Shown here one piece after another: positions 8,219-63,575 of a stretch of DNA of 64,000 nt. Positions within the stretch are counted from its first letter, which is position 1. Every line of letters starts with the position of its first letter. The translations under genes were made by a program, and so were the position numbers. Below the pieces are notes generated by a model. The model had not been told where the DNA came from. It worked only from the letters and a program-made list of their open reading frames with translations, and made no database searches. Source of the DNA: Pseudomonadota bacterium (GTDB lineage Bacteria > Bdellovibrionota > UBA1018 > CAIMNF01); assembly GCA_027488515.1 (NCBI GenBank), contig JAIYBN010000001.1, positions 192,811 to 256,810 of the forward strand, written 5' to 3'.

Positions 8219-9000
8219 TCTTTGATTTTCGCTTTACGGCGCAATTCGGTCACAAGATTCCGCAGCAATTCACGCTGCACATCCGACCGGACTTGCTGCT
8301 CGACTTCGACAAACTCGGGTGTCTTTCCGACCTTCCGGTCCACCACTTTGATGACATGGAAACCGAACGAGGTCTTCACAGGTCCCACGATCTCACCGAT
8401 CCCGGCCGAGAATGCGGCGCGAGTGAAAGCCTCGTCGAACATGTTCCGGGAAAAGTACCCGACGTCTCCACGGGTGGTCTTCGCCGACGGATCCTTGGAA
8501 CGCTGTTCGGCCAAGCGCTGGAAATCCACACCTCTCTTGGCTTCAGCCAGAACGCTGTCCGCATCGGCCTGGGTCGCGAGCAGGATGTGCTGCGCGTGCA
8601 CCTGGTCGGTCGAATAACGGGTCTTGTTTCGCTGATAGAAGTCCTTCACGGAGGCTTCGGTGACCTTCGGAGCGAGCTTCTTCGAGACCAGGAGATTCAC
8701 CAAGGCCTGCTTCCGCATCAATTGGAGAGAGTCCTTGAACTCACGGGAGGCATCCAATTTCTCACCGGCCGCCTCCTGAACCATGAGCTCCTGATCGACC
8801 AGGTCTTGGATGATGCGCTTCTTGGTGGCCGGATCCTTTTGGGCGAGTTCCCGCTGATGCATCGGGAGACCTGCGACCAAAGCCTGAAAATCCTCGTCAG
8901 TGATGCTTTTTCCGTTCACGCTGGCCAACACTCCGGCCGAAACCGGCATGGACATCCCGACTCCCCACACAAGCAACCCCAGAAAGAATGATGATTTCAT
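8215..9000 (-). CDS. Periplasmic parvulin-type peptidyl-prolyl cis-trans isomerase (SurA/PrsA/PpiD-like chaperone).
   Basis: Signal peptide MKSSFFLGLLVWGVGMSMPVSA. PpiC-type rotamase motifs (FSRNMFDEAFTRAAFSAGIGEIVGPVKTSFGFHVIKVVDRK). Confidence 0.8.
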   Translation of the reverse strand: MKSSFFLGLLVWGVGMSMPVSAGVLASVNGKSITDEDFQALVAGLPMHQRELAQKDPATKKRIIQDLVDQELMVQEAAGEKLDASREFKDSLQLMRKQALVNLLVSKKLAPKVTEASVKDFYQRNKTRYSTDQVHAQHILLATQADADSVLAEAKRGVDFQRLAEQRSKDPSAKTTRGDVGYFSRNMFDEAFTRAAFSAGIGEIVGPVKTSFGFHVIKVVDRKVGKTPEFVEVEQQVRSDVQRELLRNLVTELRRKAKIKE

Positions 9001-56347: not shown

Positions 56348-56959
56348 ATGGATCAAGCAAAGGAGTTCCTCCTCCAGTACCAGGGGATTCAGGCCTATCT
56401 GGTATTTTATTTCACACTGATCGGATGTGGAATCGGCATGCCGATCAACTCCGATCTCACCTTGATTGCCGCCTCGGTGCTCGCTGCACTCGGTTTCTTC
56501 AAACTGCCGATCCTGATTCCGGTCGCCTTCCTCGGTCTCCTGAGCGGAGACACGATCAATTATCTCGTCGCGCGCAAGTACGGGCCGAGAATCCTGAAGA
56601 AGGCTCCCTTCAAGTGGATCCTCACGCCAGGCAAGGTCGCCGCTGCCGAACGTTATCTCGAAAAACGGGGAACCCGGTTCCTGTTTCTGGTCCGGTTCCT
56701 TCCCTTGATCCGGACGGCACTGTACTTCACCGCGGGCTCCTTGCAAGTTCGCGCCCGGACCTTTTTCCTTCTGGATGCGATTTCGACCGTGATCTACCTG
56801 CTCGGGCTCATGAATCTCGCCCATACCGCCGGTGCGAACATCGACTCCCTGATTGAGGGCTTCAAACGCTTCCAGTTCGGCTTGCTCGGATTCCTGCTCA
56901 CCGGATCCCTTTTCATCCTCTACCGGAATCGCCGGACAAAAAGGACTCTCGCCTCATGA
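56348..56959 (+). CDS. DedA-family (VTT/SNARE-associated domain) membrane protein.
   Basis: DedA signature region LVARKYGPRILKKAP...FLFLVRFLPLIRTALYFTAGS. About 200 aa with 4 to 5 TM helices. Confidence 0.8.
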   Translation: MDQAKEFLLQYQGIQAYLVFYFTLIGCGIGMPINSDLTLIAASVLAALGFFKLPILIPVAFLGLLSGDTINYLVARKYGPRILKKAPFKWILTPGKVAAAERYLEKRGTRFLFLVRFLPLIRTALYFTAGSLQVRARTFFLLDAISTVIYLLGLMNLAHTAGANIDSLIEGFKRFQFGLLGFLLTGSLFILYRNRRTKRTLAS

Positions 56960-59316
56960 ACCGTCTCCTGCTCTGGGTCTCGGCCCTCCCCTTGGTCCTC
57001 ATCGCGGCCTTCTTCCAGATCACACTCGATCTGGGGGAGCGCGGAGAACTGGAATCCAAATTCCTTCGGGGAACCATCTATCCGATCGCACGATCGGTGA
57101 CGGGAGCGCTGACCAACATCAAGTTCCGCTTGCGCGGACCCGAGTCCGGCAACCAGAAGATCGTGATTCTTGCGGCGGATGAGGAATCAATCGTTGCACA
57201 TGGCCGCTGGCCCTGGCATCGGGAGGTCTACGCCAAGATCATCGACCGGCTCCTCGCAATGGGAGTCAAGACCATCGGATTCGACATGGTGCTCTCGGAG
57301 CCTGAGGAGCGGATCCACCAAAAGGCCTACAAGCTCGTCGAAAAACACAACCCCTCCCTCTTGAAGGATTTCCTCGAACTTGAGAGCGATCCGCAACTGG
57401 CTCAAGCGATCGCTCGAGCAAAAGATAAACTGGTATTGGGCTACGCCTACGACGGGGCCTGCCAGCCCAGGTATGAGAAAGATGAATCTTGTCCACTCTC
57501 CGCAGCTGGAACCTCGGCGAAGATCCGGAATAGCATCGGAAAGTTCGCCATCGAGCAACCCTATCCCTTTCCCAAAGAAACCCTTTGGGGGACCTCGCTC
57601 AGGAACCTGTATCACTTAATCCCGAATATCGATCTCTTCAGTGACAATGCCCGTTATGCCGGGATCTTCAACGCGGATCTTGACCCGGACGGTTACATCC
57701 GGCGCTACGGATTGTTCTCCTTTTCCGAAAACCTCATCCTTCCTTCACTTGCAGTGAAGATGGCGGAGCTCGCCCGGGATGATCAGATCCAAATCGAATT
57801 CCGTCCGGACGGTCTCATCAAGAAAGCCTATTTCAAGAAGGACCCCGCAAATCCGATTCCGGTGACCCCGCTCGGGTACATGGATATCAACTTCAAAGGG
57901 CCGAACCATTACCAGCTCGAGAAAGAGATTCCGGGATACGAACCGTACTACTACATTCCGGTCCATCATTTGCTGGACAAAAAACTCACCCCCATCGATG
58001 AAGCAGAGCTCCAAGAAATCCTCTTTGACTCACATGTGCTGTTCGGTGCGACGGCTCTCGGGGTTTATGACATGAGGGCCTTCCCCTTCGATTCGAACAC
58101 CCCCGGGGTCGAAGGTCACGCGACAGCCCTCGACAACCTGATTGCCGGCAACCAACTCCGCTCGGCCAGCGCCATCCACATGAGCTGGTTGCCTTTGACC
58201 TTGATCGTGGTCTTCGGCCTGGTTTTCATCTTTCTGTTTTCGAGCCTGGACGCCATCCCGAGCATCCTCGTCTTCATCGGATTCTTGAGCGTCTTGGGTT
58301 GGATCGACATCCGCATCTTGTTCAAGAATCACATCAACCTGTCGACTGCTTTCCTCCTGATCGAGACCTTTCTCATTTTCGTCACCCTGCTCTCGATCCG
58401 GTACATCTTGGAGGAAAAGAAGAAGAAATTTGTGAAAGAGGCGTTCTCCAAATACCTCGCCCCGCAAGTCGTGGAACTGGTCCTCGAGGATCCGAGCAAG
58501 CTCCAGGTCGGCGGTGAGCGGAAGGAAGTCACCATCCTGTTCAGCGATCTCCGTGGCTTCACGAACTTTTCGGAGAACATGGACCCGAAGGTGCTCACCC
58601 AGTTCCTGAACGAGTACCTCTCCGAAATGACCGAGATCATCTTCCAACACGAGGGGACCCTCGACAAGTACATCGGGGACGCGATCATGGCCTTCTGGGG
58701 CGCACCCATCGACCAGAAGGATCATGTGGAGCGTGCGTGGCGGGCCGCCGTGGCCATGAAAAAGCGTCTCGACGAGATCGCACCGGACTTCAAAAAACGT
58801 TACGGGATCGACGTCAGTGCCGGGATCGGCATCAACTCGGGACTGGTCAGCGTCGGAAACATGGGCTCCAAGAGGATTTTCGAGTACACCGTGATCGGAG
58901 ATCACGTGAACCTCGCATCCCGACTGGAAAGCCTGACCCGATTGTACGGTGGAGACATTCTGAGTACCGAGGTGACCCGGGAGAGGCTCCCGGAAGGGGT
59001 CCAGGGACAATTCCACACCCGGATTCTCGACTCGGTGATCGTAAAGGGGAAGACCAAGGCGGTCGATCTGATCCAGATCTCCGAAGTGGAGTTCGACCCC
59101 GAGCTGATCCGCAACTTCACCGAGGCCCGCGAAGCATTCAAACACCGGGAATGGGAAGTGGCCCGGACCAAGTTCACGCTCGCCAGTGAAATCCAGAAAG
59201 CCCGCACCGGTTCGGTTGATCCGGTCTCCGAGATCTACCTCTCGCGTTGCGTGGAGTTCGAGAAAAATCCCCCTCCGCCCGACTGGGATGGAACGATAGA
59301 AATGCGCAGGAAATGA
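56956..59316 (+). CDS. CHASE2-domain membrane-bound class III adenylate/guanylate cyclase.
   Basis: N-terminal TM and periplasmic CHASE2-like domain, three TM helices, then a cyclase homology domain (EVTILFSDLRGFT; YIGDAIMAFWGAP; VGNMGSKRIFEYTVIGDHVNLASRLES). Confidence 0.85.
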   Translation: MNRLLLWVSALPLVLIAAFFQITLDLGERGELESKFLRGTIYPIARSVTGALTNIKFRLRGPESGNQKIVILAADEESIVAHGRWPWHREVYAKIIDRLLAMGVKTIGFDMVLSEPEERIHQKAYKLVEKHNPSLLKDFLELESDPQLAQAIARAKDKLVLGYAYDGACQPRYEKDESCPLSAAGTSAKIRNSIGKFAIEQPYPFPKETLWGTSLRNLYHLIPNIDLFSDNARYAGIFNADLDPDGYIRRYGLFSFSENLILPSLAVKMAELARDDQIQIEFRPDGLIKKAYFKKDPANPIPVTPLGYMDINFKGPNHYQLEKEIPGYEPYYYIPVHHLLDKKLTPIDEAELQEILFDSHVLFGATALGVYDMRAFPFDSNTPGVEGHATALDNLIAGNQLRSASAIHMSWLPLTLIVVFGLVFIFLFSSLDAIPSILVFIGFLSVLGWIDIRILFKNHINLSTAFLLIETFLIFVTLLSIRYILEEKKKKFVKEAFSKYLAPQVVELVLEDPSKLQVGGERKEVTILFSDLRGFTNFSENMDPKVLTQFLNEYLSEMTEIIFQHEGTLDKYIGDAIMAFWGAPIDQKDHVERAWRAAVAMKKRLDEIAPDFKKRYGIDVSAGIGINSGLVSVGNMGSKRIFEYTVIGDHVNLASRLESLTRLYGGDILSTEVTRERLPEGVQGQFHTRILDSVIVKGKTKAVDLIQISEVEFDPELIRNFTEAREAFKHREWEVARTKFTLASEIQKARTGSVDPVSEIYLSRCVEFEKNPPPPDWDGTIEMRRK

Positions 59317-59317
59317 T

Positions 59318-60313
59318 ATGAGCGCCAAAGAAGTCAACCTGAAACAGAAAGACATCCTTTTCGAGGAGGGCGACCCCTCGAAAAACCTCTACTTTGTCAA
59401 AAAAGGGGCGATCCGGCTCTTCCGCAGGAAGGGGGACGGGAAGATCGAGATCGACACCGTCCGCGCAGGCTCCGTATTGGGTGAGTTGGCGTTTTTCGAC
59501 GGCCAACCCCGCTCGGCTTCGGCGGAGGCCTTGCTTCCGACCGACCTGATCGAGATCTCCAAAGGGTCTCTCGACGATGCGCTTTCCAAGATCCCCGAGT
59601 GGCTGGTGACTTTGATCAAGACCATCAGTTCGCGCCTGAGGGCCGCGAACAACAAGGTCCGGATTCTGGAGAGCCTTTCGACCGAGTACGAAGTGGACAA
59701 GCACGGGAACCGTTCGAAGGAGTACTGCTTCGTGACCACTCCCGAATTGCTGAAGTTCTCGACCGCGCTGCTCACAGTGGCCTCCCGCTACGGCAAGAAC
59801 GAGAAGCCGGACGGAATCGAGTTCACCTCCGCCATGCTCGAGCGCTTCGCGACCCAGATCCTCCAGGTTCCCTCGGCCAAAGTGTTGAGCCTGATCGAGC
59901 TCATGAAGACGGTCAAGATCCTGAAAGACGATCTCATGCTCACCGACATCCGGTTCCTCGACCAGTTCATCCAATTCGTGAATGAACAGAACCTGACGGC
60001 CCACGAGAAGAGACAAACCCTTTCGGAATCCGGATTCAAGATCCTGGGCCTCATGGTCCAGAACAGGGCTCAAGCCAAGCCTCTCGCCGACTCGGTCGAA
60101 CGTCTCAACATCGGACCCGCCATTCAACAGGCCAAGATCCCCGTGGGACAGATCCAGGAGTTGCAGGACCAGGGCTTCATCAAGAACATCACGCTTGTCT
60201 CGGCGAACGAGGTACTGCTCGACTACGAGGGAAGTAACCTGCTGTTCCTGTACCGCGTGTACTGGGTTCTGACCGAGATCGACCGCCTCAACGAGGAGAA
60301 GCGGAAGAAATGA
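59318..60313 (+). CDS. Cyclic-nucleotide-binding domain protein with a C-terminal domain of unknown function.
   Basis: N-terminal cNMP-binding cassette (ILFEEGDPSKNLYFVKKGAIRL...GSVLGELAFFDGQPRSASAEAL). About 200 aa C-terminal region without a recognisable HTH. Start 2 nt after the cyclase stop. Confidence 0.75.
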   Translation: MSAKEVNLKQKDILFEEGDPSKNLYFVKKGAIRLFRRKGDGKIEIDTVRAGSVLGELAFFDGQPRSASAEALLPTDLIEISKGSLDDALSKIPEWLVTLIKTISSRLRAANNKVRILESLSTEYEVDKHGNRSKEYCFVTTPELLKFSTALLTVASRYGKNEKPDGIEFTSAMLERFATQILQVPSAKVLSLIELMKTVKILKDDLMLTDIRFLDQFIQFVNEQNLTAHEKRQTLSESGFKILGLMVQNRAQAKPLADSVERLNIGPAIQQAKIPVGQIQELQDQGFIKNITLVSANEVLLDYEGSNLLFLYRVYWVLTEIDRLNEEKRKK

Positions 60314-60992
60314 CGACGAAGCTCTCGATCTTGCGCTTCGAGACGAGTTCCTTGCCCTTCGCTTCAGCGGCCTTGCGGGATTTGAATCCCGAAAGCACGA
60401 CCCGATAACGGGTCTCCCCGTTCACCTTTGCAGTCCGGACCTCGGTCTTCAGTCCGCGTTTGGTGAAGACCCCCGTTTTTTTACGGGCGGCCTGGATGTT
60501 GGGGTAAGAGCCCAGTTGGACCGCAAAAGTTTCAGCGGGCGCCGCGTGCTTCTCTGTGTTTTTTTCTGCAGTTTTTTCCGCGACCTCTTCCTCTTCTTCT
60601 TCCTCTTCTTCAGCGACCGGAGGATGGGTCACCGCTGTCGGGAGGGCCATGGGCGGATGCACGGTTTTCTCGGTCGGGAGCTCGACCGGCTTCGGATGAT
60701 CCAACTTGATCCCGGATTCAGCCGCAGCCTTCTCGGTGGCACCCTCGATCGCGTCTTTGGTCGCCTGATCCACGTATTGGGCACCCTGATCCAGAACCGC
60801 ACGAGGAGGAGTCGACTCATGCCCACCCTCGACCTTCGGAGCGGGAGCCTCGGCCACCGGATCGTCCACGCGGATCTGCTTTCCGTAGTGCAGTCCGAGC
60901 GTGAAGCAGAATCCGAGGGCGGTCACCACGAGAAGTCCGAGAACGAACAACTCTTTCCAGCTGAAAATGAAAAATTTCTCGCTCTTTTGCAT
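60288..60992 (-). CDS. SPOR-domain (peptidoglycan-binding) membrane-anchored protein with an acidic linker.
   Basis: Start at MQKSEKFF, TM (LFVLGLLVVTALGFCF), poly-Glu tract (EEEEEEEEEE), and a C-terminal SPOR domain (FAVQLGSYPNIQAARK...RYRVVLSGFKSRKAAEA). Confidence 0.7.
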   Translation of the reverse strand: MQKSEKFFIFSWKELFVLGLLVVTALGFCFTLGLHYGKQIRVDDPVAEAPAPKVEGGHESTPPRAVLDQGAQYVDQATKDAIEGATEKAAAESGIKLDHPKPVELPTEKTVHPPMALPTAVTHPPVAEEEEEEEEEVAEKTAEKNTEKHAAPAETFAVQLGSYPNIQAARKKTGVFTKRGLKTEVRTAKVNGETRYRVVLSGFKSRKAAEAKGKELVSKRKIESFVVISSASPR

Positions 60993-61013
60993 CAAGTTCG
61001 AGTCTACTCCCGT

Positions 61014-61029
61014 TGGCGCGGTTTTTGTA
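61014..61029 (+). promoter_or_regulatory. Possible sigma54-type promoter upstream of the Flp-like pilin gene (imperfect).
   Basis: TGGCGCGGTTTTTGTA versus consensus TGGCACG-N4-TTGCW (2 mismatches). Predicted TSS falls within a few nt of the ATG at 61042, which would imply a leaderless or near-leaderless transcript. Confidence 0.3.
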
Positions 61030-61041
61030 GACCAAAGAAAC

Positions 61042-61218
61042 ATGAATCGAATCTCTTTGAAACGTCCCGACCGGAGCGGCCAAGGCCTGAGCGAATACAT
61101 CATTCTCGTCATGCTGATCGCGGTATGTTCGATCGCCGCTTCCCGGACGGTGGGCTCCACCATCAAAACCAAGCTCGACACCATCAACCAGAAACTCCTC
61201 GAGATCCACATCCCCTGA
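61042..61218 (+). CDS. flp: Flp/Fap-family (type IVb, Tad-type) prepilin.
   Basis: 58 aa. Basic leader (MNRISLKRPDRSG) followed by QGLSEYIILVMLIAVCSIAA, i.e. the G|XXXXEY class-III signal with a hydrophobic helix, then a short polar tail. Size and motif are typical of Flp pilins. Confidence 0.55.
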   Translation: MNRISLKRPDRSGQGLSEYIILVMLIAVCSIAASRTVGSTIKTKLDTINQKLLEIHIP

Positions 61219-61577
61219 ACCGGAGATGCGGACAAAGCCTGATCGAATTCCAGTGGGCGATGTTGCTCATCCTGCTTCCATTGGCCGGGGGGGCGGTCCG
61301 GATGGGTTGGATCGAATTCGCCCGGATCCGATGCGGACTCCGTGCCTTCCAGGCCGCCCGGGAAGAACTCCTCCATACCGCCGCCCCTGTGGTCCGTCTG
61401 GAGCCCTGCGGAGGCGGAATGGAGGAGCGGATCCGTCTCCTGCCCCTGGAACGCCTCGACCGGACCGGGCGGGATTCTCCGTCCTCGGTGGAATTCTCCT
61501 TCTCATGGCTCTCAGCGGGGGAACAGGCCTCTGGATTGCCGCCCGACACCTCCGCGCCATCACGGAGCGCCAGGTGA
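61215..61577 (+). CDS. TadE-like pseudopilin candidate (start codon uncertain).
   Basis: Frame translates ...NRRCG|QSLIEFQWAMLLILLPLAGGAV...IEFAR, resembling the TadE N-terminal motif (G|xxxVEFAL... / IEFGR). The only in-frame start upstream of the Gly is CTG at 61215, overlapping the flp stop. An ATG at 61260 would remove the motif. Confidence 0.35.
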   Translation: MNRRCGQSLIEFQWAMLLILLPLAGGAVRMGWIEFARIRCGLRAFQAAREELLHTAAPVVRLEPCGGGMEERIRLLPLERLDRTGRDSPSSVEFSFSWLSAGEQASGLPPDTSAPSRSAR

Positions 61578-62038
61578 ACTTCGATCGCTGTACGGGAATG
61601 GCGGTTCTCCGCGTGCGTTCCTGGATCACCGCACACGAAAAGTCCTGGAAACGGATCGAGTCGGCGCGAAGGATCACACTGGGCTTGCTCCCGACACCGG
61701 CCGGCCCGACCGCGGTCGAATCCTTCCGGATCCTCCTGGTGGCGGAACGGGGGATCCAGGAAAAATTCCGTCTGGAATGGATTCAAAGCTCCCTGCGCTG
61801 GAATCTCCTCACCGGGGTCGGTTGCCGCTTGCGCCGGCGCCCCGAGCGGAGTGACTTCCCGGAATACGATTTGATCCTGGTGGAGCCGGATGCGGAGGCA
61901 ATGCTGACCGGTGCCGGGTCCCGGATTCCGATTCCACGCGACGAATACCGGGTCAGGATCGCCTCCCGGAATCAAAACTCTTCCGCGGTGGCATGGAGGT
62001 CTCCCGATGAAACTTGGAAGGTCCGATGGATTCCCTGA
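61505..62038 (+). CDS. Hypothetical protein with an N-terminal hydrophobic segment (frame-2 ORF, real coding part only).
   Basis: The listed 270-aa ORF has a P/R/G-rich, non-protein-like N-terminal 90 aa. Protein-like sequence begins near MALSGGTGLWIAARHLRAITERQ... and continues to the stop. It overlaps the 3' end of the TadE-like ORF by about 70 nt. Confidence 0.3.
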   Translation: MALSGGTGLWIAARHLRAITERQVNFDRCTGMAVLRVRSWITAHEKSWKRIESARRITLGLLPTPAGPTAVESFRILLVAERGIQEKFRLEWIQSSLRWNLLTGVGCRLRRRPERSDFPEYDLILVEPDAEAMLTGAGSRIPIPRDEYRVRIASRNQNSSAVAWRSPDETWKVRWIP

Positions 62039-62186
62039 ACGCCAGCGGGGATCCGTATTCCTGGAGGTGGCACTGTGGGCAGGCCTGATCGTGTTCGTTC
62101 TGGTTCTTTGTGGCAATCGCTTCGCCCGGACCTATCGGGGCTTTTATCGCGCCTTGGAGCACCAGCGGTCGACCCTGCATTACTGA
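62007..62186 (+). CDS. Second small Flp/TadE-like prepilin-type protein.
   Basis: 59 aa. Good SD (GGAGG, 7-nt spacer). Leader MKLGRSDGFPERQRG followed by SVFLEVALWAGLIVFVLVL (G|XXXXEV-AL class-III-like motif plus hydrophobic helix), then a short tail. Confidence 0.45.
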   Translation: MKLGRSDGFPERQRGSVFLEVALWAGLIVFVLVLCGNRFARTYRGFYRALEHQRSTLHY

Positions 62187-62191
62187 GACAA

Positions 62192-62614
62192 GTGCGGGCC
62201 CTGCTGGGCCTGCTCGCGGGCCTCGTTCTGGTGGCACTGGCCCATCGAGGGTCCTTCGAGGCGGGGGCACGCCGGTTTCATGAGGAACACCTCCTCCCCG
62301 GAGAGGCCTGGCGTTCCGTACTGGCCACCCGCGGATTCCGTCCTCTTGCTTTGAACCGGGGTTCTCCGGGGGACGGCAAGGTCCGGATTTCACAGGATGG
62401 CCGGATCATCGAGTTTCCCGGTGGGATTCCTGACCTACCCACGGGGGTCCACATCCGGGGGGTCCCTGCCCCCAAACCGGATTGGATCGAGCTCAGCCCC
62501 GGAATTGCCGGTTTCGAAGCCTGGATCCGGAGCCTGGAAGCCCATCCGATTCCCCGGGCAAAGTCGACGAAGCCCCAGGTCAATTCGATTGACCCCAAAG
62601 AGTTCCGCTATTAG
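62192..62614 (+). CDS. Small membrane-anchored protein at the end of the pilin-like operon.
   Basis: GTG start 6 nt after the previous stop. N-terminal TM ALLGLLAGLVLVALA followed by a roughly 120-aa soluble domain. No family recognised. Confidence 0.35.
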   Translation: MRALLGLLAGLVLVALAHRGSFEAGARRFHEEHLLPGEAWRSVLATRGFRPLALNRGSPGDGKVRISQDGRIIEFPGGIPDLPTGVHIRGVPAPKPDWIELSPGIAGFEAWIRSLEAHPIPRAKSTKPQVNSIDPKEFRY

Positions 62615-62624
62615 AATCCCGGCC

Positions 62625-63575
62625 ATGCACACACGCCCCACCCGTCCGATTCTGACCGTCGGTTCCATGGCCTTCGACTCCGTTCGCACCCCAGCCGGGA
62701 AAGCGGACCATGTCCTCGGAGGCTCGGTGAATTATTTCTCTTTGGCCGCCTCACTGTTCACGCCGATCAAGATCGTCGCTGTGGTCGGTGATGACTTCCC
62801 GAAGGAGCACCTCGGATTCCTGAAAGAACGCAATGTGGACGTCTCCGGCGTGCAAGTCGCAGCCGGCAAGACCTTCCACTGGGTGGGTGAATACGACACC
62901 AACCTGAACGAGGCCAAGACCCTCGCCACCGCTCTGAACGTGTTCGAGCATTTCGACCCCAAACTTCCGGAAACCCACACCGACTGCCCCGTGGTCTTCC
63001 TCGCGAACATCGACCCGGTCCTGCAACTGCAGGTCCTGAACCAGGTTCGCGGTCATGAGTTCGTGGCCTGCGATTCGATGAACTTCTGGATCACCGGAAA
63101 GCCTGCGGAACTCAAGGAGACCCTGAAACAGGTGGATCTCCTCTGCATCAACGAAAAAGAGGCGTTCCTGCTCTCTGACGAAAAGAGCCTCGAAAAAGCA
63201 GCCCGCAAGATCCAGTCCATGGGCCCTTCCAACATCATCATCAAACGTGGTGAATACGGCTCGGCCCTCTTCACCCCGACCGGTACTTTCCTCGCCCCTG
63301 CATTCCTGGTCGACGAAGTCATCGATCCGACCGGAGCCGGAGACAGCTTTGCCGGAGCCGTGATGGGTTATCTGGCCGAGGCCGGAGCCAATCGTGCGAT
63401 GATGAAGAACGATCCCCAAGCCTGGGATCAACTCCTCCGCCGTTCGGTCGTCTACGGAACCGTGATGGCGAGCTTCACCATCCAGGATTTCAGTATCGGC
63501 CGTCTGAAGACCCTCTCCCGCGAAGACCTGATGCACCGGAGAGAGAAATTCATGAGAATGATGAGCGTCGGATGA
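62625..63575 (+). CDS. PfkB-family carbohydrate/nucleoside kinase (ribokinase-like).
   Basis: PfkB signature DPTGAGDSFAGAVMGYL and a ribokinase-like fold. Start at MHTRPTRPILTVGSMAFD, internal to the listed ORF. Confidence 0.8.
   Translation: MHTRPTRPILTVGSMAFDSVRTPAGKADHVLGGSVNYFSLAASLFTPIKIVAVVGDDFPKEHLGFLKERNVDVSGVQVAAGKTFHWVGEYDTNLNEAKTLATALNVFEHFDPKLPETHTDCPVVFLANIDPVLQLQVLNQVRGHEFVACDSMNFWITGKPAELKETLKQVDLLCINEKEAFLLSDEKSLEKAARKIQSMGPSNIIIKRGEYGSALFTPTGTFLAPAFLVDEVIDPTGAGDSFAGAVMGYLAEAGANRAMMKNDPQAWDQLLRRSVVYGTVMASFTIQDFSIGRLKTLSREDLMHRREKFMRMMSVG

Follow-up and report, generated by a model that had tools for sequence, protein, structure and literature searches.

The small Flp prepilins of Tad (type IVc) pilin sets are defined by the motif G|XXXXEY (PMC5430801). 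In Bdellovibrio and like organisms (BALOs) flp genes are also located outside the tad locus (flp3 and flp4), and one is unannotated in HD100 (PMC5430801), while B. bacteriovorus has no TadV and its Flp1 is processed by PilD (10.64898/2026.07.08.737194). The pilin cluster described here comes from a Bdellovibrionota lineage and consists of five genes in the order flp, g1, g2, g3 and g4. It was analyzed in a DNA stretch of 64,000 nucleotides (contig JAIYBN010000001.1, positions 192,811 to 256,810), which is called the window below and whose first letter is position 1. We consider it probable that these genes form a conserved operon, in which g1 is translated from a CUG codon coupled to the flp stop, g2 from an ATG at 61331 inside g1, and g4 from a start nested in g3.

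Long overlaps created by overprinting are best known from phages and viruses, and are rare in bacterial chromosomes. Long same-strand overlaps have been called rare (PMC10666635), and the commonest arrangement of coupled genes is the -4 overlap (PMC10666635). Re-initiation at a short distance works without a Shine-Dalgarno (SD) sequence (PMC2268962), and near-cognate initiation at CUG in E. coli reaches about 0.02-3% of the AUG level (10.1101/063800).

Results

Selected reading frames in the cluster

To collect relatives of the cluster, the adjacent PfkB protein was searched against a set with one genome for each species, which gave 80 syntenic loci, all of them in Bdellovibrionota metagenome-assembled genomes (MAGs). 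Over the cluster, three species share 84% (L017), 82% (L001) and 75% (L002) identity with the window, and they align to it with no gaps over 61000-62640. Independent assemblies were also compared, namely L082-L085 of the L017 species, L086-L094 of the L002 species, and L095 of the window's own species. The junction sequences were identical in L082-L095, with L082-L094 repeating those of L017 and L002. L095 is 98.5% identical to the window and differs from it over 61042-62070 by 7 substitutions and 0 indels; four gap openings between the two are located outside 61042-62070, that is, upstream of flp or just beyond 62070. The genes, the putative starts of g1 and g2, and the point at which the coding frame changes are as follows:

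flp, 61042-61218, plus strand: frame 1, from ATG 61042 to TGA 61216-61218, 58 aa, with the motif SG|QGLSEYIILV
g1, 61215-61577, plus strand: TadE-like pseudopilin gene, 120 codons in frame 0, stop TGA 61575-61577
Putative g1 start, CTG 61215-61217, plus strand: overlaps the flp stop TGA 61216-61218 (CTGA, 4 nt), in the C run 61212-61215
g2, 61331-62038, plus strand: gene of a pilin-like or TadG-like membrane protein, predicted 235 aa, frame 2
Putative g2 start, ATG 61331-61333, plus strand: arises from the g1 codons CGA-TGC, of which TGC encodes the conserved Cys of g1
Frame-switch point, 61460-61473, plus strand: CGGACCGGGCGGG, invariant in the three-way alignment
g3, 62007-62186, plus strand: pilin-like gene, 59 aa, frame 0, putative start ATG 62007, MKLGRSDGFPERQRG|SVFLEVALW...
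g4, 62075-62614, plus strand: membrane protein gene, 179 aa, frame 2, with a putative GTG start inside g3

The ungapped three-genome alignment contains 419 variable columns, and the changes at third codon positions track one frame per segment (for instance, 20/7/2 at 61220 and 5/1/15 at 61535). The frames determined by substitution periodicity, and the ratios of nonsynonymous to synonymous substitution rates (dN/dS) computed pairwise among the four species (window, L017, L001 and L002), are:

61040-61218: frame 1 by periodicity
61215 to about 61460: frame 0 by periodicity
About 61470 to 62010: frame 2 by periodicity
62010-62186: frame 0 by periodicity
62186-62614: frame 2 by periodicity
g1, 61218-61328: dN/dS 0.04-0.24
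g1, 61332-61469: dN/dS 0.12-0.35
61473-61574 read in frame 0: dN/dS 0.9-2.0
61473-61574 read in frame 2 (g2 transmembrane (TM) segment): dN/dS 0.13-0.24
g2 body: dN/dS 0.10-0.19
g3 C-terminal part: dN/dS 0.07-0.33
g4 body: dN/dS 0.11-0.22

For flp the dN/dS among the same species was 0.06-0.11. The substitution periodicity and the dN/dS values together indicate that all five genes are kept by purifying selection. The data confirmed the frame switch as real and well outside what chance would produce. Selection hands over within CGGACCGGGCGGG, where ...LPLERLD in frame 0 gives way to G|FS... in frame 2, and the changes of L095 at 61486 and 61489 alter the amino acids when read in frame 0 and leave them unaltered when read in frame 2. 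The open frame 2 extends from 61118 to 62038 and is Pro/Arg/Gly-rich until G|FSVLGGILLLMALSGGTGLWIAA, which begins at 61472. The switch of coding character from frame 0 to frame 2, which had been noticed in the original prediction, is thus placed by periodicity and dN/dS at about 61472. The plot of GC content at third codon positions (GC3), which was suggested there as a check, agrees with the switch, but is ambiguous and not decisive on its own, because frame 1 is also high (0.72-0.88 over 61260-61380). The constrained part of g1 is 61215-61471, followed by an unconstrained Ser/Pro-rich tail (61472-61574), in which g1 would be reading through the codons of the g2 TM helix. Judged by these patterns, g1-g4 appear to be real conserved pilin-type genes, with neither a frameshift error nor a dead gene among them.

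A separate observation concerns the region 61404-61441, which shows unusually high nucleotide conservation, third positions included, and which may be under dual-frame constraint. It contains two SD-like motifs (GGAGG 61410-61414 and GGAGGAG 61422-61428), after which no usable frame-2 start is present, while ATG 61419 in frame 0 is not conserved.

The start of g1

The N terminus of g1 reads LNRRCG|QSLIEF..., i.e. (M)NRRCG|QSLIEFQWAMLLILLPL, and has the features of a class III signal, which are a short basic leader, Gly at -1, Glu at +5 and a hydrophobic helix. When 17 g1 orthologues were aligned, G6, Q7, F45 and L78 were invariant, and E11, P22 and C40 were nearly so; the invariant G(-1) and Q(+1) together with the nearly invariant E(+5) mark this N terminus, at the level of sequence, as a class III (prepilin) signal. 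The original prediction stated that the TadE-like open reading frame has no canonical start ahead of G|QSLIEF and that CTG 61215 overlaps the flp stop, and both statements hold. Most of the 17 orthologues have an ATG 4-12 codons ahead of the Gly. In frame 0 of the window no ATG, GTG or TTG is present from 61128 to the Gly codon; the sole such codon further upstream is ATG 61125, which lies 30 codons up inside flp and is not conserved. In L002 a stop at its positions 8468-8470 is followed by no ATG, GTG or TTG as far as the Gly.

The CTG at the 61215 site is kept in the window, L017, L001, L002 and the independent assemblies, and it is the only canonical or near-cognate codon upstream of the Gly that is conserved in all four species. 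The same position is occupied by ATG, the ancestral codon, in L004, L015, L005 and L006, where it overlaps the flp stop as ATGA, while the g1 ATG of L003 is located 18 nt downstream. In the window clade the last Pro codon of flp is CCC, not CCA. Among the 14 codons from CTG to the first downstream ATG or TTG, nine show synonymous changes only (e.g., Arg AGA to CGG) and four show amino acid changes, and the ATG 61260 site is CTG in L001 and CTC in L002. Because these codons are nearly all synonymous in their changes and ATG 61260 is unconserved, translation of frame 0 is expected to start upstream of 61218-61230, and the most likely g1 start is CTG 61215. In comparison with -4 coupled gene pairs, the locus has the NTGA overlap (CTGA 61215-61218), and it departs from them in the start codon, which is CTG instead of a canonical one in the window, L017, L001, L002 and the independent assemblies. 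Little or no SD sequence precedes the g1 start in ATGA and CTGA genomes alike.

We infer that the ancestral ATG of the ATGA overlap was converted to CTG in the window clade by the change of CCA to CCC, which is synonymous in the flp Pro codon. The g1 protein would then be made at a low level from CUG by ribosomes terminating on the flp stop one base away, and such termination-reinitiation coupling from flp to g1 would not need an SD sequence. A low output of g1 would be appropriate for a minor pilin whose gene is next to that of the major pilin. As a side observation, a G7 homopolymer is present at 61287-61293 of g1 (AGGA codons) in the window and L001, and L017 and L002 lack it; slip-strand events are conceivable at this homopolymer, and no variation of its length was seen in the assemblies compared.

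The start of g2

The predicted g2 protein consists of a 47-aa basic Pro/Arg/Gly leader (61331-61471), the sequence G|FSVLGG with a TM helix (61472 to about 61543), and a conserved domain with the motifs ...QVNFDRCTG... and ...WKVRWIP. The leader, MRTPCLPGRPGR...PRPDRAG, is not conserved; it seems to have a dN/dS of 2-4, but this value is artefactual and produced by the overlap. In each of the 16 genomes of the long-leader clade, to which the window belongs, g2 occupies the g1 frame minus 1, and in no case are the two fused; a fused single reading frame in relatives was what the original prediction had proposed to look for. Alignment A1 of 29 g2 sequences covers both leader types. In 15 short-leader relatives g2 has its own ATG, in the pattern M-x(5-25)-(E/D)RG(S/A)L..P followed by the TM helix; this ATG overlaps the g1 stop by 4 or 7 nt (ATGGTGA, ATGGTAA or ATGA), and g1 ends there with ...LExxQW and the stop. 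The long-leader genomes L015 and L006 represent an intermediate state, in which the Trp-based proximal ATG is kept (MGRxG|F) and the g1 stop is lost, while in the other 14 genomes, including the window, the proximal g2 ATG is lost too. Hence, two separate genes with normal starts at equivalent positions, which the original prediction named as a finding that would speak against an anomaly, are present in the sister clades and not in the window clade. As far as sequence comparison tells, g2 is a gene separate from g1.

The position of the conserved g1 Cys codon offers a start for g2 in most of the clade, as the triplet at this site in the -1 frame is ATG in 13/16 genomes, GTG in one and CTG in two. 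From this triplet to G|F the -1 frame contains no stops in all 16 long-leader genomes, while the equivalent stretch has stops in 13 of the 15 short-leader relatives used as a control and is open in 2/15 (16/16 vs 2/15, Fisher p=5e-7, and 2e-5 after collapsing lineages). When the synonymous codons of g1 were shuffled in ten lineage representatives, about 32 stops were expected in the -1 frame and 13 were observed; for pfkB, which served as a control for this test, the ratio of observed to expected was about 0.8. In L003 and L010 a stop is located immediately before the Cys-site ATG, and in the L017 species gene callers begin a 235-aa g2 at this ATG. These data suggest that g2 most likely starts at ATG 61331 and runs to 62038. 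The constrained coding overlap of g1 and g2 is 106 nt (61472-61577), and it would be 247 nt with the start at ATG 61331. Hence, of the interpretations offered in the original prediction, that of two overlapping genes with a CTG start is supported by the comparative data, while the overlap of 70 nt given there is wrong.

The history of g2 could be envisaged as follows. The ancestral start next to the TM helix would have been lost in the window clade, and translation would begin instead at the ATG formed on the conserved Cys codon of g1. The resulting 47-aa basic leader would be overprinted on g1 and free to vary, perhaps because prepilin peptidase cleaves at G|F.

Two other starts of g2 were considered and rejected. 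A near-cognate start at the position of the ancestral proximal ATG would have to use CTG in L003, ATC in L005, and elsewhere CTT, TCT, GAT, GCT, CCG or TCG. Re-initiation at GTG 61574 (GTGA on the g1 stop) would delete the conserved TM helix, and the position of the g1 stop varies among relatives. A metagenome scan with g2 gave one locus, which ends 41 nt upstream of G|F and is uninformative on starts.

The g3 and g4 genes

The pair g3 and g4 repeats the arrangement of g1 and g2, with g4 nested in g3. The g3 gene overlaps the 3' end of g2 by 32 nt and has an SD sequence, GGAGG 61995-61999, 7 nt upstream of its start. The predicted g4 start sits on the conserved Trp codon of g3, which gives a g3/g4 overlap of 112 nt, and its SD sequence, GGAGG 62063-62067, also 7 nt upstream, is built on Leu-Glu codons of g3. 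The start triplet is ATG in L017, L001, L002 and seven distant relatives, each with an SD-like motif of the GGAG(G/A) type, while the alternative g4 start GTG 62192 is GTC in L001. Gene callers report g4 as 179 aa. The parallel with g4, which has a strong SD sequence, supports the reading of g2 as starting inside g1.

Two side observations concern the 3' end of g4. A sigma-70-like promoter, TTGACC-17 nt-TAGAAT (62589-62617), is present within the last g4 codons and ends 7 nt before the pfkB ATG 62625, which suggests that the pfkB mRNA is leaderless. The g4 C terminus, ...IDPKE(F/I)RY and the stop, and its DNA are conserved even in distant relatives, perhaps due to the embedded promoter.

The flp gene and the surroundings of the cluster

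The flp gene, whose product begins MNRISLKRPDRSG|QGLSEYIILV..., agrees with the definition of short Flp/Fap prepilins (50-80 aa, G|XXXXEY, then a hydrophobic stretch), as it encodes 58 aa with SG|QGLSEYIILVMLIAVCSIAA. Its match to the Pfam family Flp_Fap (PF04964) has E=2.7e-4 and 21.1 bits, which does not reach the gathering cut-off of 32.2 bits. Close flp homologues are annotated by JGI as 'Flp pilus assembly pilin Flp', and an exact-protein look-up of the flp of the window gave no record. No SD sequence is present ahead of flp in the window clade (61020-61044, gaccaaagaaacATG), while most relatives have AGGAG 6-9 nt upstream.

The cluster (61042-62614) is set between a minus-strand SPOR-domain gene and the gene of a PfkB kinase (62625-63575), and its further neighbours encode a CHASE2-guanylate cyclase and a cyclic nucleotide monophosphate (cNMP)-binding protein, with ftsA and ftsZ further upstream. 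The SPOR-domain protein (60288-61004, minus strand) contains a long poly-Glu run. The CHASE2-guanylate cyclase and cNMP-binding genes (56956-60313) are located directly upstream of SPOR/flp, with the same placement in the L017 and L002 species, which hints at a link of cyclic-nucleotide signalling to the pilin cluster. No tad machinery is carried by the window near the cluster. Dozens of more distantly related loci gave the same five-gene cluster ahead of pfkB with tblastn. The locus would be a conserved five-gene pilin operon, without linkage to a tad locus and packed via out-of-frame overlaps.

Family membership of g1-g4

Searches of the window g1-g4 proteins against Pfam, NCBIfam and PDB gave no family match, and no significant family was found with 17 g1 and 29 g2 relatives. 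For TadE (PF07811) the window g1 gave no match even at E<=10, and one of the 17 relatives matched at E=0.034, while TIGR04205, 'class III signal peptide', matched 2/17 g1 relatives at 2.3e-5. The g1 gene is directly downstream of flp (4-nt overlap), and this synteny is held in dozens of loci. By motif and position g1 would be a TadE-type pseudopilin, not one that can be filed under PF07811. Neither the window g2 protein nor the 29 relatives matched the TadG or Tad_N profiles, and a PDB profile search with g2 was empty. The AlphaFold model of g2, based on eight close homologues, had a pLDDT of 50 and was unusable. The short-leader g2 relatives would, by their predicted topology, fit a TadG-like layout, with one N-terminal TM helix behind a short basic leader, a larger domain outside the cytoplasm, and a place after the small pseudopilins; the window g2 has a leader of 47 aa.

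Discussion

Weighing of the proposed starts

Several points weigh against the starts proposed here for g1 and g2. CUG is a poor initiator. The SD sequence ahead of ATG 61331 is weak or absent in the window clade, and L001 and L005 carry CTG at this site, so that they would need another upstream start, for which L001 has a GTG eight codons up. To some extent a TGC or TGG codon of g1 yields an xTG triplet in the -1 frame automatically, and the excess of ATG over the controls is marginal (13/16 vs 7/15, p=0.07). The net charge of the g2 leader did not differ from that of the unused -1 frame of the control relatives (p=0.19), and as this unused frame is equally basic, the positive charge of the leader is no evidence of selection. 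At +5 g2 has Gly, not Glu, which makes cleavage at G|F a conjecture. The names TadE-like and TadG-like are given by motif and gene position only, since there is no family match, and every genome compared is a MAG or a metagenome contig.

A fuller account of the locus can be offered tentatively, as a serious possibility that falls a little short of being probable. According to it, repeated overprinting would have compacted the operon in this lineage. The starts of g2 and g4 would have moved upstream into the preceding pseudopilin genes, with new starts on conserved Cys and Trp codons, and the leaders encoded in the overlaps of 247 and 112 nt would be disposable and might be cut off by prepilin peptidase. 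The g1 gene would depend on a coupling-only CUG, which would result in a very low ratio of minor to major pilin, and g1 and g3 would be missed by standard gene callers.

Other explanations

It is unlikely that g2 starts elsewhere, either at another upstream xTG (TTG 61307, GTG 61253 or ATG 61226) or at a non-canonical codon near G|F (e.g., ACG 61451). Such a start would be in line with the canonical start codons which all four window-clade species hold at the sites 61307 and 61253, with the lack of ATG at the 61331 site in L001 and of a clear SD sequence ahead of ATG 61331, and with the ATC that L005 has where L015 and L006 have the proximal ATG. However, the triplets at 61307 and 61253 are automatic by-products of g1 Trp codons after a purine or T, ATG 61226 is missing in L017 and L001, and no near-cognate codon at most 12 codons from G|F is conserved across the clade. 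In L003 and L010 earlier starts are excluded by the stop right before the Cys-site ATG.

The start of g1 at CTG would not be needed if tRNA-Pro slipped by -1 on C-CCC-UGA (61212-61218) at the flp stop, to give a Flp-g1 fusion. The change of CCA to CCC, which removed the ATG, also made a run of four C right before the stop, so that perfect -1 re-pairing is possible, and ATC CCC TGA is conserved in all four species. This explanation is nevertheless improbable, because the ancestral state is independent initiation at an ATG in the same position. Moreover, given the topology of pilins, the g1 TM helix would follow the periplasmic C terminus of Flp and be inserted in reverse, and the G|Q site would not be at the cytoplasmic face, which is the side on which prepilin peptidases act. 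The RNA after the slip site shows no structure (z=+0.36), and in none of the four 81-91-nt windows that were folded, covering both junctions and ATG 61331, did the RNA fold better than its shuffled sequences (z -0.24 to +0.36).

We regard as quite improbable a programmed -1 ribosomal frameshift near 61460-61473 that would fuse g1 and g2, which was among the interpretations in the original prediction. It would explain why g2 is in the g1 frame minus 1 throughout the clade and why in most genomes a canonical start is missing from the roughly 30 codons nearest to G|F, and it could draw on the unusual conservation of 61404-61441 and 61460-61473 and on the SD-like GGAGG and GGAGGAG motifs upstream. 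Yet no XXXYYYZ heptamer is present in the g1 frame over 61220-61480 in the four window-clade genomes, and elsewhere such heptamers are sporadic and non-conserved. The RNA folds around and downstream of the site are not unusual (z about -0.2), and no Rfam match was found at E<=1. The short-leader relatives, which are the distant ones, as well as L015 and L006, have an independent ATG of g2. A shift at the junction needs no open -1 frame for 47 or more codons upstream, yet this frame is open, and the basic stretch would precede the second TM helix of a fusion, which would be the wrong orientation for a pilin-like protein.

A coincidental resemblance of g1 to TadE, with the start at ATG 61260 (as also considered in the original prediction) or TTG 61263, is very improbable: all four species do carry a canonical start at one or the other of this adjacent pair of codons, but the 14 codons upstream of them are mostly synonymous in their changes, and in the 17 orthologues the motif keeps its G, Q and E(+5) with little or no variation. 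The chance that the locus contains an assembly or sequencing indel or a decaying pseudogene is negligible: g1 has no canonical start, one frame seems to run into another, and gene-caller models are inconsistent (235 aa, 270 aa, or 112 + 154 aa), but an assembly error is excluded by three colinear species without indels and more than 13 independent assemblies, including L095, with the same junctions, each frame is under strong purifying selection in its own segment (dN/dS 0.04-0.35 where g1 and g2 are constrained), and 16 genomes share this architecture, at protein identities as low as about 25%.

Consequences for annotation

At this locus gene callers report flp, g2 and g4 only, while g1 is not called, and g3 is absent from all gene calls seen. 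A contig of a fifth lineage, P0003 (JGI 3300059473), has an flp that is 91% identical; there g1 is called from the equivalent of 61239 (112 aa) and g2 from the GTGA equivalent to 61574 (154 aa), which shows the instability of automatic models for the locus. Because g1 and g3 are unannotated and g2 models vary between genomes, inventories of Tad minor pilins in predatory bacteria are likely incomplete. The change of ATGA to CTGA under strong purifying selection in four species provides a natural test of the acceptance of near-cognate codons by re-initiating ribosomes, and bears on how the ratios of major to minor pilins are set. The two pairs, g1/g2 and g3/g4, with the intermediates L015 and L006 and the relatives of the ancestral type, give a stepwise picture of how a long same-strand overlap can originate in a bacterial chromosome.

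Comparison with known systems

The cluster resembles Tad (type IVc) pilin sets and the flp3 and flp4 loci of BALOs in that a small Flp with G|xxxxEY is followed by proteins with class-III-type N termini (G|QSLIEF, G|SVFLE) and by a larger membrane-anchored protein, and, like the extra flp genes of BALOs, it is placed away from the tad machinery. It is different in that g1-g4 reach no TadE or TadG model of Pfam or NCBIfam, and that g2 has G|F with Gly at +5. The processing of Flp1 by PilD would fit with the G|F site of g2, as a matter of compatibility and not as a proof of cleavage. The nested out-of-frame arrangement is not described in either of the BALO studies (PMC5430801; 10.64898/2026.07.08.737194).

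As in -4 coupled pairs (PMC6728339; PMC10666635; PMC2268962), the g1 start overlaps the flp stop by 4 nt with little or no SD sequence, and the sister clades have ATGA. In contrast, the start of the window clade would be CTG, which is not among the starts seen there, although it is kept in four species and followed by a sequence with dN/dS of about 0.05. The proposed CUG is comparable to the near-cognate codons CUG, AUU, AUC and AUA (10.1101/063800), as it is a single-base variant of AUG where AUG is ancestral, and a low output would fit a minor pilin; it differs in that its use is suggested by evolution only, and in that the context would be re-initiation and not SD-driven de novo initiation. 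The dnaX type of -1 frameshifting shares with the locus the -1 relation of consecutive coding segments and SD-like motifs upstream of the junction, but the locus has no slippery heptamer and no stimulatory structure, and its orthologues have independent starts.

A further parallel to the g1/g2 and g3/g4 pairs is overprinting, in which a second frame is open from a conserved start inside the first gene, as was found for g1/g2. The new N-terminal extensions of g2 (47 aa) and g4 (37 aa) would lie in the -1 frame of an older gene, with the constraint in the older frame and the new frame varying freely. Unlike in other cases of overprinting, the overprinted part seems to be a dispensable leader and not a new functional domain, and the overlap would have arisen by an upstream move of the start and the loss of the g1 stop, with L015 and L006 as living intermediates. 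The locus does not overturn known principles, and is an unusual variant of three known phenomena, which are the -4 coupling overlap, near-cognate initiation and overprinting.

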